NCBI GenBank assembly: GCA_046290465.1
Contig: JBKAGP010000001.1
Location: 6,144,001 to 6,208,000, forward strand
Direction: 5' to 3'
DNA from: Planctomycetota bacterium
Lineage (GTDB): Bacteria; Planctomycetota; UBA1135; UBA2386
Length of the DNA: 64,000 nucleotides
In this document: positions 16,349-64,000 of the stretch, piece after piece
How the letters are laid out: each line of letters starts with the position of its first letter
Position numbering within the stretch: position 1 is the first letter of the stretch
Notes under the pieces: model-generated
Database searches by the model: none
Seen by the model: the letters and a program-made list of their open reading frames with translations, nothing else
What the model was told of the DNA's origin: nothing
Made by a program: the position numbers and the translations under genes

Positions 16349-16474
16349 CGCGAAGGTGGGATCCGCCAGGCACCCCGGGCACAAGGAACAGCCACCGTTG
16401 GCTGCTACCTTCCGGTCCTGACCAGGTGCGCCGACTGCCCCCTTGCTCGGGACCCGGCAGACCCCACCTTCGCG
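16349..16474 (-). ncRNA. ffs: signal recognition particle RNA (4.5S)
   Basis: Long hairpin closed by CGCGAAGGTGGG/CCCACCTTCGCG, with domain IV motif TCAGGACCGGAAGGTAGCAG; near dnaX. Ends approximate. Confidence 0.93.
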
Positions 16475-16490: not shown

Positions 16491-16581
16491 TGGCGGAGAG
16501 GGGGGGATTCGAACCCCCGACGGCCTTTTGGGCCGTACCCGCTTTCCAGGCGAGCTCCTTAAGCCACTCGGTCACCCCTCC
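16491..16581 (-). tRNA. tRNA-Ser(GGA)
   Basis: Reverse complement: GGAGGGG acceptor, anticodon loop CTGGAAA, long variable arm, GGGGGTTCGAATCCCCC, CCA end. Confidence 0.96.
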
Positions 16582-55234: not shown

Positions 55235-55590
55235 TGGTCACAGACGGGCTGCGACACCTGCTCGAGCGCGGCGACGGCATGGGGGAGTACGACGACGGCC
55301 GCAGCGGGTACGCCGAGCATCCGGTCTGCGGCGATCGCATGGAGCTGAGCGTGCAGCGGGACGGCGAGACCGTGCGCGGCGTGCGCTGGCGCGCCAGCGG
55401 CTGCCCTGCGTCGATGGCGCTGGCGGCGCTGTGCAGCGAGGTGCTGGTCGACGTGCCGGTCGCCGAGGTCGCCCGCGTGCTGCGCGCCGGCATCGCGGCG
55501 CGCGGCGGGCTGAAGCGGCACGAGCAGCACGCCGAGAAGATGGCGCTGCGTGCCCTCGAGCAGGCGCTGGGCGAGGCCCCGGGCAGCTGA
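55234..55590 (+). CDS. IscU/SufU (NifU N-terminal)-like protein
   Basis: [10 protein letters not shown] and ASGCPASMA motifs; third Cys absent. Confidence 0.8.
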
Positions 55591-55591
55591 G

Positions 55592-57178
55592 ATGGCGCGC
55601 TGGACCGACTTCCTGCAGCGGTTGCGCGGCGACGCGCACGACGGCGAACGGCAGCGCTGGCTGGCGATCCTCGGGTTGAACCGCCAGCTCGCGCTCGCCG
55701 ACGGCCGCTCGGCGGTGTTGACCGTGCTCGTCGACGAGGCGGTGCGCCTGTTCGGCGCCGAGCGCGGCTTCCTGATCGCGCGCCGCGGCGACGACGGCTT
55801 CACCGTCGAGGTCGCGCGCAGCCTCGACCGCGAGCCGGTCGCCAACCCCGAGCGCAAGGTCTCGTCGACGATCGTCGAGCGGGTGCTCGGCAACGGCGAG
55901 GGCCTGTTCAGCGAGGATGCCCAGGACGACGCCTTGACCGCATCTCAGAGCGTCGCCGACCTGCGGCTGCGGTCGGTGCTGTGCATGCCGTTGCGCGTCG
56001 GCGACCGCGTGCTCGGCGTGCTCTACCTCGACCACCGCTTCCAGTCGGGCGCGTTCGGTGAGAAGGACCTGCCGTGGCTGATGGCGTTCGCCGACCAGGG
56101 CGCGATCGTGCTGCACCTGCACGGCCTGCTGGCCGAGAACCGCGCCCAGGCGGCGCAGCTGGCCGAACAGAACGCCGGCCTGCGTGCGACCGTCGCCGCG
56201 CAGGCGCGCGCGCTCGCCGACGAGGCCCCGGTGCCCGGTCGTGACGAACTGCGCCACCCGATGCCCGGCATGGTTGGCGACTCGCCGGCGCTGCTGCGCG
56301 CGCTGCACGTGCTCGACCGCGTCGCCGATACCGACCTCGGCGTGCTGCTGACCGGCGAGAGCGGCACCGGCAAGGAGGTCGCGGCGCGCGCGCTGCACCA
56401 GGCCAGCGCGCGGCGGCAGGGGCAGTTCGTCGGCGTCAACGCGGCGGCGATCACCGGAGAGCTGCTGGCGAGCGAGCTGTTCGGCCACACCAAGGGGGCG
56501 TTCACCGGCGCCGACCGCGAACGGCCGGGGCTGATGCGGCGCGCGGCCGGCGGCACGCTGTTCCTCGACGAGGTGACCGAGATGGACCTCGAACTGCAGG
56601 CCAAGCTGCTGCGCGCGCTCGAGGAGCGGCGCGTGCGTCCGGTCGGCAGCGACCGCGAGCAGGCCATCGACGTGCGCGTGATCGCCGCCAGCAACCGCGA
56701 TCCGCGCGCCGCGATCGCCGACGGCCGGCTGCGCGAGGACCTCTACTTCCGCCTGGCGGTCGTCACCGTGCACCTGCCGCCGCTGCGCGAGCGCGGCGAG
56801 GACCTGGTGGCGCTGACCCGCAGCTTCGTCGACGGCTTCGCGCGCGAGCAGGGCGTGCCCGCGCCCGACCTGCACGACGACTTCCTCGCGGCGCTGCGCG
56901 CACGGTCGTGGCCGGGCAACGTGCGCCAGCTCCGCAACGAACTGCAGCGGGTCTGGGCGCTCGGCGACGGCGGGCCGCTGCGGCCCGAATGGCTGACCCC
57001 GGAGGAGGCCGGGCCCGGTCCGGCCGACGGCGTGCCGACCGACCTCGCCGGGCTCGAGCAGTGGGCGATCGACCGTGCGCTCGAGCAGGCCGGCGGCAAC
57101 AAGGCCGAGGCGGCGCGGCTGCTCGGCATCGGCCGCCGCACCCTCTACGACAAGCTCAAGGGGCGCGCGCAGCCCTGA
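55592..57178 (+). CDS. sigma54-dependent enhancer-binding protein (GAF-AAA+-Fis HTH)
   Basis: GAF (SVLCMPL...LYLD), [47 protein letters not shown]. Confidence 0.96.
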
Positions 57179-57181
57179 TCG

Positions 57182-57202
57182 GGTGTGCGGATCCTGCACA
57201 CC
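57182..57202. promoter_or_regulatory. palindromic upstream activator site candidate
   Basis: GGTGTGC-GGATCCT-GCACACC inverted repeat about 85-100 bp upstream of the -24/-12 promoter. Confidence 0.6.
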
Positions 57203-57284
57203 TGGGCGATCGCCGCACGCCGCGGTCGGTCGCCCGGATCTTGTAACCCATGGTATGAAGGGCTCTTGAAGAAATGTCTCAGGT

Positions 57285-57300
57285 TGGCACTGCGGTTGCT
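57285..57300 (+). promoter_or_regulatory. sigma54 -24/-12 promoter
   Basis: TGGCAC-TGCGG-TTGCT matches TGGCAC-N5-TTGCW; preceded by an AT-rich tract. Confidence 0.85.
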
Positions 57301-57315
57301 CTCCCCTCCGCCAGC

Positions 57316-59028
57316 ATGACGCGTCTCTCGCTCGCAATCCTGATGGCATCCGCTGGCCTGCTCGGTCAGACCGATGTCGACGGTGCGCCCGAGCTGAAGG
57401 ACTGCGTCGAACGGCCCTACGCCTACATCCGCCTCGACGCCTCGCCCCCTCGAAGCCGCAACGCCAACCGGCGCGACCACGCCGCGGTGCGCAAGCTGCT
57501 GTCGAACCCTTCGCTCGACCTGCTGTTCACCGGCGATCTGCAGGCGACCGGCACGGGCGAGGCGGCCGGCAGCAACACCGGCAGCGAAGCCGGCTCGAGC
57601 CGCGCGCTGTCGATGGTGCGCGGCATGCTGAGCAAGGGTGCCAGCCAGATCGAACTGGCGCTGACCGGCATCGTCGGCCGCGCCGGCAAGCCGCTGCTGG
57701 TGCTGCGGGCCCGGCTCGAGCACGACCAGGCGGATCGTCTGCGGCTGGTGCTCGAGCAGACCGCCGCGCTGGCGACCCCGAACCGCAAGCTCGGTGGCCA
57801 CCAGACGTTCACGTTGCGCGGCGGCCGCGGCCAGGGTGCCGGTGACGTCGTCGAGATGGCCATGGTCGGCGACGACTTCGTGGTCGGCAACGACACCTCG
57901 GCGATGCGCGAGGTGCTCGAGCCGCAGCCCGCGACGACGTCGGCGGGTGCGCAGCGCCAGGTGCTGTCGGCCAACAAGCAGTTCCAGCAGCTGCGCCAGC
58001 GCCTCGAGGTGCCGCCGGGCTCGCTGCTCGCCTTCGGCGACTGGAAGCGGCTCGGCCGGCGGCTGCAGTCGTCGATGACCGGCGCGCACGCCGAACTGCT
58101 CGCGTCCAGCGGGCTCGGCTCGGCGCGCTCGGTGATGATGACGATCGCCCCGGCATCCAAGGAACAGTCCAAGAAGGCGGACGAGGCGTTCGCCGCGACG
58201 CTGCTGCTCGACTTCGAGTTCGACGCGTCCGAGCGCGGCGGCGGCATCGACGGCTGGTTCGCCGCGACCCAGCCGGTGCCAGCCCGTCAGCTGATGAAGG
58301 AGCTGCCGCGCACCGGTCTCGGCGGCCTGGTGCTGTCGGTCGACCTGCGTGCGGTCGCGTCGCACTCGCGGCGCACGTCGCACCTCTACTGGGACCTGCG
58401 CGAGGCGTTCAGCAACTTCGGCCTCGACTTCCAGCGCAACGTGCTCGGTCGCTTGGTCTCACGCGGGACCGTGCAGCTGCACTTCGGCAAGCGGCACTTC
58501 GGCGCGTCCGGCGATGCGTTCGCCGCGGTGTCCCCGGTCTACGCCGTGCGGGCCAAGAACCGGCGCGCCGCGCAGGACCTGTTCAGCGACATGCGGCGCG
58601 TCGTCGAGGAGACCGAGATCGGCAAGCTGGTCGAGTTCACCGACGAGGCCGGCAAGCGCAAGGTCGAACTGCTGCGGCTGACCGGACGCGCCAACGCGTT
58701 CTCGGCGTTCTTGATGGTGCACGACGACACGCTGCTGCTCACCCGCGAGCAGGAGACGCTGGCGCAGCTGTTCGAAGAGCTGAAGCGTCCGCGCAGCCGC
58801 AACCGTCGCGACCAGCTGGCCAGCAACGCGATCAAGTCCATCGGCGGCGAGGACATCGCCGGCCTGTTCGACGTCGACCTCTCGCCGTTGTTCGAACGAA
58901 TCATGGCTGCGCTCGGAACCTCCGACGTAGACCTGTCGACGCTCCCCCGGCGTCATGTCGGTTACCTCGCGACCGATCGCTCCGAAGACGGTGCGGTCGT
59001 GCGCGTCCGGGTGTTGTCCTCGAGATGA
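57316..59028 (+). CDS. exported hypothetical protein (DUF3352-like)
   Basis: Signal peptide from ATG 57316; MAMVGDDFVVGND...LSANKQF unit resembles the 31446 protein. Confidence 0.7.
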   Translation: MTRLSLAILMASAGLLGQTDVDGAPELKDCVERPYAYIRLDASPPRSRNANRRDHAAVRKLLSNPSLDLLFTGDLQATGTGEAAGSNTGSEAGSSRALSMVRGMLSKGASQIELALTGIVGRAGKPLLVLRARLEHDQADRLRLVLEQTAALATPNRKLGGHQTFTLRGGRGQGAGDVVEMAMVGDDFVVGNDTSAMREVLEPQPATTSAGAQRQVLSANKQFQQLRQRLEVPPGSLLAFGDWKRLGRRLQSSMTGAHAELLASSGLGSARSVMMTIAPASKEQSKKADEAFAATLLLDFEFDASERGGGIDGWFAATQPVPARQLMKELPRTGLGGLVLSVDLRAVASHSRRTSHLYWDLREAFSNFGLDFQRNVLGRLVSRGTVQLHFGKRHFGASGDAFAAVSPVYAVRAKNRRAAQDLFSDMRRVVEETEIGKLVEFTDEAGKRKVELLRLTGRANAFSAFLMVHDDTLLLTREQETLAQLFEELKRPRSRNRRDQLASNAIKSIGGEDIAGLFDVDLSPLFERIMAALGTSDVDLSTLPRRHVGYLATDRSEDGAVVRVRVLSSR

Positions 59029-59141
59029 TTGCACCTGCTGTGTAACGCAGCGCGATCCACTCGTAGCAACACCTGCTCTTTCCCAACTCCAAACAACAGC
59101 CTTCGGTGAGGACCGGCGCGCTCGCGCGCCGTCGCCTTGCC

Positions 59142-59355
59142 GCGGATGCATGGGTGTCGAAACAGCCTCCAGCCGGCCCGAAATACTTGGGGCAGGCAGG
59201 GTCGGACGGAGACTTCCGCGTGTGTTGCGCGGGACATGCATCCGCATCTTCTTCGGGCGCATGGGTCGTTTGTCCCGCGCCGTCATTCCGAATACTTGGG
59301 GCAGGCAGGAATGACGGGGCGGAATGCGTGGTGTCACGCGGCGATCCATGCGCCC
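59142..59355 (+). ncRNA. candidate tandem structured RNA (two ~100-nt multi-stem units with a shared loop)
   Basis: Two units, each with a closing stem, a hairpin bearing GA(A)ATACTTGGGGCAGGCA and a small GTGT-loop hairpin. Stems differ but pair. Confidence 0.65.
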
Positions 59356-59395
59356 TCATTTTGTTTATGGGCATGCTTGGGTCTACAACCGGGGC

Positions 59396-62212
<2,817 letters not shown>

Positions 62213-62265
62213 CGCCCGGCACCACCGCGCCGGCAGGCCGGACCGACCGCATCGCGCCGCGAAGC

Positions 62266-62295
62266 GGCGCAGGATGAACCCGGTTCGGATGCGGC
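62266..62295. repeat. dispersed palindromic intergenic repeat, copy 3
   Basis: GGCGCAGGATGAACCCGGTTCGGATGCGGC. Confidence 0.75.
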
Positions 62296-62315
62296 GTCGA
62301 GGCCGTGGTCTCGGG

Positions 62316-63014
62316 TCAGCGGTCGCCGTACTGCTCGCGGAACTGGGCGCGCACGGCGACGAGGAAGGCCTCGAGCTGCTTGCCGGGTTCGTCGTCGAAC
62401 GGCTCGCGCAGTTCGAGGTCGCGCAGCCGGTCGACCCGGAAGGTGCGGAAGTCCTCGCGCAGCTCGCACCAGGCGCCGAGGGTCCAGACCGCGCCCCAGA
62501 ACGCCAGGCACAGCGGCCGCAGCACGCGTTCGGTGCCGGCTCCTGCCTTGTCCTCGTAGCGAACGCACAGCCGGCGCTTGGCGTCGATCGCCTCGCGCAC
62601 GGTGCGGATCGTGCCGCGCACCTCGGGGCACATCTCGGCCGGCACGGCCAGCTCCGGTCGGGCGAACCCCTGCAGCAGGTGATCCGGGACCACCTGCTCG
62701 ACCTTGGCGAGCACGCGCCGCGCCTGCGCGGCGAGCCGTTCGTCGCCGAACGCCTGCACCATGCGCGCGCCGAGCACCAGGGCATCGATCTCCTCGCGGT
62801 CGAACATCAGCGGCGGCAGGTCGAAGCCCTGCTGCAGGCAGTAGCCGACGCCGGCCTCACCGTCGATCGGCACGCCGCTCGCCAGCAGGTCGGCGACGTC
62901 CCGATAGACGGTGCGCAGCGAGACCTCGAGCGCGTCCGCCAGCTCGCGCGCGGTCACGACGCGCTGCGAGCGCAGCAGCAACACGATCTGGAACAGCCGG
63001 TCCGCGCGACGCAT
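62316..63014 (-). CDS. YafY-family HTH-WYL transcriptional regulator
   Basis: MRRADRLFQIV, LEVSLRTVYRD, GEAGVGY, WCELREDFRTFRVDR. Confidence 0.95.
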   Translation of the reverse strand: MRRADRLFQIVLLLRSQRVVTARELADALEVSLRTVYRDVADLLASGVPIDGEAGVGYCLQQGFDLPPLMFDREEIDALVLGARMVQAFGDERLAAQARRVLAKVEQVVPDHLLQGFARPELAVPAEMCPEVRGTIRTVREAIDAKRRLCVRYEDKAGAGTERVLRPLCLAFWGAVWTLGAWCELREDFRTFRVDRLRDLELREPFDDEPGKQLEAFLVAVRAQFREQYGDR

Positions 63015-63050
63015 GGCGGGCAGACGTTACCACCGAGGCAGCCGCAGGGC

Positions 63051-63554
63051 TCAGCTCCACTCCGGCACGTCGGCCGTCGGTCCGTAGGTCGGCGGCACCG
63101 CTGCGTCGCACAGGCGGAGGTAGACCTGCAGCTGGCCGCGGTGCTGGATCCAGTGGTGGATCAGCACGTCGCGAACGACCTGCTCGCGCGGCGCCTGCTG
63201 CAGCACCTTGTCGCCCATGCGCGCCGTCCACGTCCGCCGCATCGCGTCGTCGTCGAGTCGTTCGAGCGAGCTGCGGCACGTCGCCAGGTTGGTCTCGAGC
63301 GTCGCGAACAGCTCGGCCTTGTCCTTCGGCACGAACGGCTGGTAGTCGGCCAGCTGCGCGAAGTCCATCTCGTCCTCGAGGAAGCCGTGCGCCCACATCG
63401 GCGCCTCGGCGAGGTGCCCGGCGAGTGCTGCCATCGTCCACGACTTGTCGTGCGGGCGGTAGTCGAAGCGGTCCTCGGGAACGGCCTGCAGCACCTTCAC
63501 CGTCAGGGCGGCTTCGCGGGTCAGGTCGGAGAGCAGCGATTGCGTGATCGTCAT
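63051..63554 (-). CDS. DinB/YfiT family protein
   Basis: YRPHDKSWT...LAGHL, HHWIQHRGQLQVYLR, PPTYGP. Confidence 0.92.
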   Translation of the reverse strand: MTITQSLLSDLTREAALTVKVLQAVPEDRFDYRPHDKSWTMAALAGHLAEAPMWAHGFLEDEMDFAQLADYQPFVPKDKAELFATLETNLATCRSSLERLDDDAMRRTWTARMGDKVLQQAPREQVVRDVLIHHWIQHRGQLQVYLRLCDAAVPPTYGPTADVPEWS

Positions 63555-63684
63555 GCGGCGCATGATGACGAGCCCCTGCTGACAGCGTGGTGGCAGCAGC
63601 ATCGCGGTTCGTCGAGCAGCCGCCCATGCGAGGAGCCCAGGCGGCAGCGCCAACGCTGCTTCCAAGCCAACCGCGGAAGCGCGC

Positions 63685-64000
63685 TCAGCGCTTGCCGATC
63701 GCGTCCGCCGGCAGCTCCAGCACCAGCTCTCGTGGTTGGTCCCGCTTCGTCTCGAACGTGCCGAGCAACCAGCTGCGCGTCGCCTTGGGATGGGTGTGCA
63801 GATGCACCTCGACGCGGCCCGGCGGCAGGCCGGCGCACGTGAACCGTCCCGCCTGGTCGAGGATCACGTCCTCGACGATCCGCTGCTGCGCCGCTTCGCC
63901 GCAGACCAGCCGTACCCGCGGGGCCGAGCGGCTGTGGTAGGCGTAGATCGATGGGCTGCGCTCGGAATCGTGCTTCGGATCGAGGCGGAGCAGCGCGTCG
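63685..64000 (-). CDS. 3' end of a protein with a carboxypeptidase-regulatory-like beta domain (truncated by window end)
   Basis: Frame open to the window end; LDQAGRFTCAGLPPGRVEV motif. Confidence 0.6.
   Translation of the reverse strand, partial: DALLRLDPKHDSERSPSIYAYHSRSAPRVRLVCGEAAQQRIVEDVILDQAGRFTCAGLPPGRVEVHLHTHPKATRSWLLGTFETKRDQPRELVLELPADAIGKR

Follow-up and report, generated by a model that had tools for sequence, protein, structure and literature searches.

The window analysed here is a 64,000-nucleotide stretch of contig JBKAGP010000001.1 of a Planctomycetota bacterium (assembly GCA_046290465.1, positions 6,144,001 to 6,208,000), and contains a tandem array of structured RNA units between the gene of a DUF3352-like protein, here called UP, and the gene lon. 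The genome of the window (G000) is a single contig of 6,594,045 bases and is 94% complete. The locus reads, on the + strand, as a sigma-54 activator gene (55550-57178), a sigma-54-type promoter (57285-57299), UP (57316-59028), a boxA-like motif (59075-59087), a hairpin H0 (59105-59141), the array with its T-rich tail (59142-59366), and lon (59396-62212). The evidence presented below strongly supports the array as a non-coding RNA locus that is specific to one Planctomycetota family and apparently undescribed.

The array is composed of two tandem three-way-junction units with the common loop UGGGGCAGGCA. Unit 1 (59142-59245, +) is closed by helix P1 (59142-59152/59235-59245) and contains helix P2 (59173-59179/59199-59205) and hairpin P3 (59214-59234). 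Unit 2 (59255-59355, +) has a longer P1 of 14 bp (59255-59268/59342-59355), P2 at 59280-59289/59308-59317, and P3 at 59326-59341. All stems and loops listed in an initial annotation, which had been made from the sequence alone, are present at these positions. The invariant part of the loop, TGGGGCAGGCA, spans 59188-59198 (+) in unit 1 and 59297-59307 (+) in unit 2. Unit 1 is followed by the pyrimidine-rich linker ATCTTCTTC (59246-59254, +), and units of related genomes carry a similar tract behind them. P1 of unit 2 is followed by the T-rich tail TCATTTTGTTT (59356-59366, +), the place of which is taken in relatives by CATTTTTTTG and similar sequences, so that the pyrimidine- or T-rich tracts pointed out by the annotation are both real and conserved. 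The GC-rich stem and the run of Us give the end of unit 2 the appearance of an intrinsic terminator. A terminator scan called only the small stem 59229-59245 with ATCTTCTTCG, as its loop limit of 8 nt excludes P1 of unit 2.

Both units are predicted to form stable RNA structures when read from the + strand, with folding energies of -53.3 kcal/mol for unit 1 (z -3.85) and -65.5 kcal/mol for unit 2 (z -7.06), and none of 200 shuffled sequences folded as well as either unit. The folds of the reverse strand are also strong (-48.2 kcal/mol for unit 1 and -57.3 kcal/mol for unit 2). The 301 nt from 59100 to 59400 fold with -163.2 kcal/mol (z -6.46), and this fold includes the additional hairpin H0, which adjoins unit 1 on the 5' side. 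H0 (GGTGAGG...CCTTGCC around CGGCGCG/CGCGCCG, +) has counterparts of differing sequence in homologous loci, for example GGCGGGG/CCCCGTC in locus L010. Together with the boxA-like motif it is part of the same conserved element as the units, which extends the element beyond the initial annotation.

The two units are aligned with 76% column identity, and their differences are located mostly in the stems. They share the identical block AATACTTGGGGCAGGCAGG and the 17-mer AATACTTGGGGCAGGCA, two copies of which occur in the window, where 0.00 are expected. Allowing for up to three mismatches, a 20-mer search of the whole genome returned only these two sites. From 57 aligned units, we built the covariance model R1, which comprises 104 positions and 22 base pairs. 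R1 detects exactly two units in G000, unit 2 with 83.2 bits and unit 1 with 81.1 bits. Thus, the genome contains two adjacent copies, not the scattered ones that the annotation had named as the sign of a mobile repeat of the MITE or REP type.

The stems of the units covary across relatives, and the loop is invariant, which agrees with the selection on RNA structure proposed in the initial annotation. In an alignment of 95 R1 matches (73 of them distinct), which was fitted to the model and is therefore biased in favour of pairing, 95.9% of the cells pair, compared with 28.5-50.4% when the 3' partners are slid by one to three columns. Changes on both sides are found in 20 of the 22 modelled pairs, and none of 500 shuffles gave values as high as those observed. 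A MAFFT alignment that had not been fitted to the model already displays compensatory changes in 16 of 23 predicted pairs. The columns TGGGGCAGGC-A, and with them the loop segment TGGGGCAGGCA, are without variation both in the 57 aligned units and in the 73 distinct units. We considered a kissing interaction of the 5' half of the P2 loop (AAUAC) with the P3 loop (GUGU), and rejected it because the 5' half varies without compensation in relatives.

The modelled pairs contain 78 G-U cells and 28 A-C cells, which argues moderately for the + strand as the one from which the RNA is read. The claim that G-U pairs work on the + strand only is thereby upheld as a preference, not as an exclusive property. 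The same numbers are relevant to the possibility that the array functions as DNA, with the GGGGCAGGCA repeats serving as transcription-factor sites, for example of the neighbouring activator, or as an element of the REP/MITE or recombination type. Identical 10-mers are indeed repeated near the sigma-54 activator gene and the lon promoter. However, compensatory changes keep the stem arms complementary, which is needless for a site in duplex DNA, G-U cells exceed A-C cells, the motif is always located on the strand of the genes, and G000 has only two copies of it. We regard a DNA-level element as highly improbable.

R1 matches 55 of the 91 genomes of the window's family, mostly as two adjacent units and sometimes as one or three. 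Each related genome has one locus with one to three matches, and the search of relatives suggested in the initial annotation thus yielded both covariation and a single locus per genome. Among 151 genomes sampled across the phylum, the model matches two, both of which belong to the window's family. The large R1 searches were run with stricter filters and scored a part of the candidates, and weak copies may escape them. The loop motif with up to two mismatches is present in 21 of 41 close genomes, and forms in the same genus typically a pair of sites about 110 nt apart. By our count, the union of R1 and tandem-pattern matches comprises 70 array-positive genomes of the 91 in the family. In 401 genomes of the phylum, the tandem pattern matched only unrelated repeats outside the family.

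A scan for two loops 85-115 nt apart, with one genome per species, returned 92 stretches, 28 of which passed a filter for the closing stem. Among the titles listed, all loci flagged by the filter are from Planctomycetota-type metagenome-assembled genomes or are labelled only "uncultured bacterium". Loci L041 and L062 were missed by the filter, and appear by eye to contain the same RNA. The remaining stretches were rejected as unrelated; they are mostly palindromes of the form GGGGCAGGCA-N-TGCCTGCC, CRISPR-like repeats, or repeats in coding sequence. Palindromic arrays of the form GGGGCAGGCA-N3/4-TGCCTGCC (L055, L088, L099, L107, L121, L175, L176, and others) occur in cyanobacteria, in Chloroflexota, and in some other Planctomycetota. 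Their having the 10-mer is coincidental, and they are a source of false matches.

The annotation had not recognised the units as a known RNA class, and neither does Rfam 15: a search of 56000-64000 on both strands at E <= 1 gave nothing in 59000-59400. The sole match in the searched region is M23 at 56338-56375 (23.7 bits, E 0.43), within the activator gene. The array is not a housekeeping RNA in disguise, because RNase P RNA (position 2158703 of G000, 259.7 bits), tmRNA (6293791, 164.1 bits), and the signal recognition particle (SRP) RNA (RF00169, 6160361, corresponding to window 16361-16459 on the - strand, 61.6 bits) are encoded elsewhere in the genome, as is a full-length 6S RNA candidate at G000:C1:83211-83420 (+) that scores 27.9 bits, below the cut-off of 46.4. 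No description of the array was found in the listed titles and opening lines of abstracts of publications on small or non-coding RNA of Planctomycetes, on lon, or with the loop strings.

Other genera of the family carry a simpler form of the array. Two copies of GGGGCAGGCA 40-125 nt apart are present in 51 of the 91 family genomes, and 15 of these genomes are R1-negative. In one R1-negative family member, G195, two plain hairpins with the same loop are positioned 3' of a gene whose product is distantly homologous to UP (29.8% identity by tblastn and 34% in another search). We assembled 14 such loci, and L169 as the fifteenth, into a simple-type set. Simple-type arrays are formed by two to four hairpins, each with a GC-rich stem, a loop composed of a pyrimidine/A-rich 5' half and GGGGCAGGCA, and a U/C-rich tail similar to TTCTTTCC. 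The set comprises 39 distinct hairpins; among them are 37 different 5' arms, and the uninterrupted stems have a median length of 14 bp. A stem of at least 8 bp is formed by 32 of the 39 hairpins, compared with 31 of 780 controls with shuffled arms.

Since the corresponding site of simple-type genera is occupied by plain hairpins with an identical loop, the conserved core of the array is the hairpin loop and not the junction. The shared topology with conserved loops described in the initial annotation is therefore correct for the loop, and does not extend to the three-way junction as a core of the family. Judged from the sequences, the unit of the window's genus looks like an elaborated hairpin, to which P1 and P3, both conserved in sequence, have been added. 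The plain hairpin and the three-way junction illustrate the evolutionary elaboration of such a module. A UUCG(U/G) string recurs a few bases 5' of each hairpin module in loci L185-L198, and a string of this type is also found at the linker before unit 2 of the window (CTTCGGGCG, 59246-59256). It may be a processing site.

The gene directly upstream of the array, UP, was listed as an open reading frame of 584 amino acids (57274-59028, +). The protein probably starts at the ATG at 57316, which would leave a very short leader, and has an N-terminus resembling a signal peptide. UP has no match in Pfam or NCBIfam. Its Atlas record starts at residue 15, and its Atlas neighbours carry the domain PF11832 (DUF3352). 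With the single UP sequence as the query and a limit of E <= 1e-6, no homologues were found in the 47 genomes searched from the order's other families. In tblastn searches with the proteins of the window, UP is located directly 5' of the array in nearly all loci. An UP homologue is upstream in 14 of the 15 simple-type loci, and the sequence of the fifteenth begins about 200 nt before its array. The order of UP stop codon (59028), boxA-like motif (59075), and array (59142-59366) is kept in nearly all loci, which gives the array the position of a 3' untranslated region (3'UTR) of UP. A small hairpin with a UGUGUA loop is present behind the UP stop codon in the window (59029-59060) and in relatives of the genus.

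UP is preceded by the sequence TGGCACTGCGGTTGC (57285-57299, +; TGGCAC-N5-TTGC), which matches the sigma-54 promoter consensus. It is the single match to TGGCACNNNNNTTGC with up to one mismatch in the window, and 22 of 40 homologous loci have a match to the pattern TGG[CT][AC][CT]-N5-T[TC]GC at the corresponding place, at a distance of 1577-2083 nt on the 5' side of the first loop. The promoter has a textbook appearance and is situated between UP and the gene of a GAF-domain activator. This activator, an enhancer-binding protein, is composed of GAF, AAA+, and HTH_8 domains (55550-57178, +; Pfam Sigma54_activat with E 2.4e-64, GAF_2, and HTH_8). Nine of the 15 simple-type loci encode a homologue 5' of UP, as do 23 of the other loci whose sequence extends far enough. 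The palindrome GTGTGCGGATCCTGCACAC (57184-57203), about 85-100 bp 5' of the promoter, is a possible binding site of the activator. A sigma-54 promoter directly before the RNA was rejected by eye, as the string GTAGCAACACCTGCT has the wrong spacing and lacks the GG. A sigma-70 promoter scan of 58900-59500 returned 0 sites. In the window's genus, conserved TGTGTA...CGTAGCA strings are located 5' of the boxA-like motif, as is a conserved CTCGTAGCA string; these strings could be promoter elements.

The close attachment of the array to UP is also compatible with a purely structural 3' end, in which the hairpins would only terminate and stabilise the mRNA of UP, or shield lon from it, without any further function. 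The terminator-like form of the array and its position directly behind the UP stop codon fit such a role. Nevertheless, it leaves unexplained why a 10-nt loop is invariant in all copies and genomes on freely changing stems, and why the window's genus has added P1 and P3 helices that are conserved in sequence. We consider this explanation very unlikely.

The leader between UP and the array contains the boxA-like motif GCTCTTTCCCAAC (59075-59087, +) and is rich in C and poor in G (16 and 2 of 35 nt, respectively). Of 38 distinct loci of the three-way-junction type, 37 have the sequence G[CTA]TCT[TC]T, followed by an A/C-rich stretch, 57-159 nt 5' of the first unit, and a boxA-like motif is behind the UP stop codon in most simple-type loci. 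The boxA consensus is given as GYTCTTTAANA in the account of PMC5725501, and by that formula some relatives have exact matches (GCTCTTTAACA in L017 and L019; GTTCTTTAACA in L016 and L018). The rRNA operons of G000 have boxA-like sequences in the spacer (GCTCTTTGACAAG) and in the leader (GATCTTTGGCATT), which also deviate from the consensus quoted there (GCTCTTTGACA and GATCTTTGGCA). A relaxed boxA motif occurs seven times in the G000 genome, including two sites in rRNA spacers and one at the array. As far as PMC7862264 summarises the subject, boxA elements stand before long non-coding RNAs, and a conserved boxA before CRISPR arrays is reported there with reference to Stringer et al. 2020. GU-rich hairpin loops are found in P3 of both units and just 3' of boxA in the rRNA leader of G000.

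The lon gene (59396-62212, +) encodes endopeptidase La (TIGR00763, E 2.2e-269) and appears to be leaderless or nearly so, judging by the -10-like TACAAC (59384-59389, +) that precedes its ATG by 6 nt. The arrangement CTA[CA]AA[CT]-N5-8-ATG is present in 12 of 16 sequences compared from relatives; of the other four, two end before lon and two have no lon nearby. In tblastn searches, lon is downstream of the array in most loci, including nine of the 15 simple-type loci. In several loci of the three-way-junction type, lon is 1.7-2.1 kb away or outside the stretch examined. The placement of the array upstream of lon in the initial annotation thus holds for most loci, whereas its linkage to UP is tighter. 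Because lon is not always adjacent and has its own -10-like motif, "downstream of a sigma-54-driven gene" is a stronger description of the array than "upstream of lon".

Contigs of relatives from public RNA libraries cover parts of the locus. One contig of 616 nt corresponds to 59119-59509 and 59637-59788, a second one to 59274-59654, and a third one to 58634-58788, inside UP; the uncovered 58805-59118 is uninformative as a gap. Such contigs cannot prove a single transcript or define its ends, and carry-over of DNA into the libraries is possible.

It is possible, although doubtful in our view, that the array controls lon in cis as a series of intrinsic terminators or attenuators between UP and lon, with a loop-binding factor or a boxA-loaded Nus complex setting the read-through from the sigma-54 promoter into lon. 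Every module combines a GC-rich stem with a U/C-rich tail behind it, a boxA-like motif is located upstream, and lon is 3' on the same strand in most loci of the three-way-junction type and in the nine simple-type loci. Moreover, two metatranscriptome contigs from relatives bridge the units and the 5' end of lon, though RNA libraries can contain DNA and the contigs are no proof of a single transcript. In five of the 15 simple-type loci, the roughly 3 kb searched on the 3' side did not reveal lon, and a sixth (L185) has it at a distance of about 1.6 kb. The gene is likewise far or was not found in several loci with three-way junctions, for example L036, L069, L101, L008, L023, and L062. The conserved TACAAC-N6-ATG motif of lon itself also argues against control by the array, as does the fact that Nus/boxA complexes are known mainly to counter Rho and not intrinsic terminators.

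We tentatively favour the reading that the array is the 3' part of the UP transcript and displays its repeated loops to a partner in trans, most likely a protein. In the proposed sequence of events, the activator would fire the sigma-54 promoter, and RNA polymerase would transcribe UP and run on into the untranslated array. Nus factors recruited by the boxA-like site would keep Rho from ending transcription early once translation has stopped, and the terminator-like last module would end the transcript. Cleavage at the conserved UUCG(U/G) linkers could possibly separate the modules. The stable RNA or RNAs formed in this way would act in trans through the repeated loop, most likely as a decoy or scaffold to which a single protein binds in several copies or with several subunits. 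Recognition by one partner would account for the loop, which is invariant in every copy in about 70 genomes on stems that change freely. The presence of two to four loop copies suggests multivalent binding.

Several observations weigh against this interpretation. The genes of two common partners of bacterial regulatory RNAs were not found in G000, namely CsrA (PF02599, at E <= 0.01) and Hfq (PF17209). UP itself looks like a secreted protein from its sequence. The contigs described above are of low depth; the first and the second run from the units into lon, neither of these two reaches UP, and they fit a lon leader at least equally well. In G000, the motif GCTCTTTCCCA agrees with the boxA consensus, as quoted in PMC5725501, at nine of 11 positions and deviates at two. 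GYTCTTT strings also occur as the U-tract behind some hairpins, and the C-rich, G-poor leader could be a Rho loading site instead of boxA. Finally, UP was not found upstream of the array in three genomes of the genus (G005, G007, and G014), in which the array must therefore have a promoter of its own.

A different trans-acting role is that of one or more base-pairing small RNAs (sRNAs), in which the G-rich loop would be a seed for C/U-rich sites in mRNAs and the modules would be redundant copies. An invariant single-stranded loop on a terminator-like hairpin suits a seed, and the tandem-copy architecture resembles that of sibling sRNAs. However, sites complementary to the loop are not enriched in G000 (49/52 with one mismatch versus 50/66 for the reversed control), a comparison that is silent on protein binding. 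The Hfq gene was not found in the genome, and ten bases that are invariant in every copy across about 70 genomes are a stricter pattern than that of typical seeds. We consider base pairing unlikely. A protein partner is favoured over a base-pairing seed because the CsrA and Hfq genes were not found, the loop has no GGA, and its complement is not enriched. The rRNA operon of G000 contains no match to the loop with up to one mismatch.

The idea of a protein-bound array can be taken further, to a multivalent protein-binding RNA of a new kind in bacteria lacking CsrA and Hfq, which a sigma-54 activator would switch on along with a secreted protein and which would capture or scaffold an oligomeric nucleic-acid-binding protein by its repeated G-rich loops; we regard this form as improbable. 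The most provocative candidate for the loop partner is the neighbouring hexameric Lon, which in this family has a basic tail resembling histone H1. If Lon were the partner, an RNA would link cytoplasmic proteolysis to a signal from the envelope or from metabolism. The C-terminus of Lon is a lysine/alanine-rich tail that matches histone H1-like models (E 3.7e-5) and may bind nucleic acids. The N-terminus carries an acidic low-complexity extension of about 80 residues with GADQxG repeats.

By analogy, the array would work most like the sequestering RNAs CsrB and RsmZ, yet without the defining features of that family. The array and CsrB/RsmZ share a short motif presented in multiple hairpin loops, a copy number that varies among species, and an end that is a terminator in CsrB/RsmZ and terminator-like in the array. 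The motif of CsrB/RsmZ is GGA, whereas that of the array loop is GGGGCAGGCA, and GGA is present only in some array units, at the start of the stem. Unlike CsrB/RsmZ, the array is located in the 3' region of a protein gene, in a genome where the gene of CsrA was not found.

The position of the array resembles that of sRNAs derived from the 3'UTRs of mRNAs that are induced by stress or by sigma-54, for which precedents exist. As outlined in the respective reports, CpxQ originates from cpxP, the gene of a periplasmic protein (PMC4817254), and GlnZ from the sigma-54/NtrC-dependent glnA (PMC9731577). Like these sRNAs, the array directly follows the coding sequence of an inducible gene on its strand, and has its 3' end in common with that gene. 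In contrast, CpxQ and GlnZ are single, Hfq-dependent, base-pairing sRNAs, and the array has multiple modules, a boxA-like site, and a genome in which the Hfq gene was not found. The array is also similar to rRNA operons and some CRISPR arrays, where a boxA-like motif heads a repetitive, untranslated, and highly structured stretch. It differs from them in having no spacers, nearby cas genes, or rRNA, and in the deviation of its boxA-like motif at two positions in G000.

With tandem riboswitches such as those for glycine, and with other three-way-junction aptamers, the array shares a pair of neighbouring three-way junctions that precede a terminator-like stem and are placed 5' of a gene. However, the conserved bases of the array are in the P2 loop, its junction strands vary, and simple-type genera have no junction; nor was an alternative pairing of the kind used by riboswitch expression platforms found in the array. 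Another similarity is to ToxI-like arrays of type III toxin-antitoxin systems, which combine tandem RNA repeats, a terminator, and a protein gene on the same strand; the array has a terminator-like module in the place of the terminator. In contrast to ToxI, the units of the array are not identical, the gene downstream is lon and not an endoribonuclease toxin, and the array is a single conserved chromosomal locus.

To our knowledge, very few regulatory RNAs have been described in Planctomycetota. As the CsrA and Hfq genes were not found in G000, the usual partners of bacterial RNA regulation may be missing from this organism. An RNA with a covarying structure, a single locus, and an invariant loop therefore provides a clean handle on a new RNA-binding partner or target set. 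The array would also exemplify a boxA-like site before a non-coding array that is neither rRNA nor CRISPR, and an RNA controlled by sigma-54 and its activator outside Proteobacteria.

Downstream of lon, an open reading frame of 522 amino acids (62274-63842, +) has no relative in Pfam, NCBIfam, or the Atlas and a low Atlas "recognition" value, and may, in the form called, not be a genuine gene. In another part of the window, a tRNA-sized sequence at 16491-16581 (-) adjoins the SRP RNA and matches the tmRNA model weakly, with 21.4 bits.

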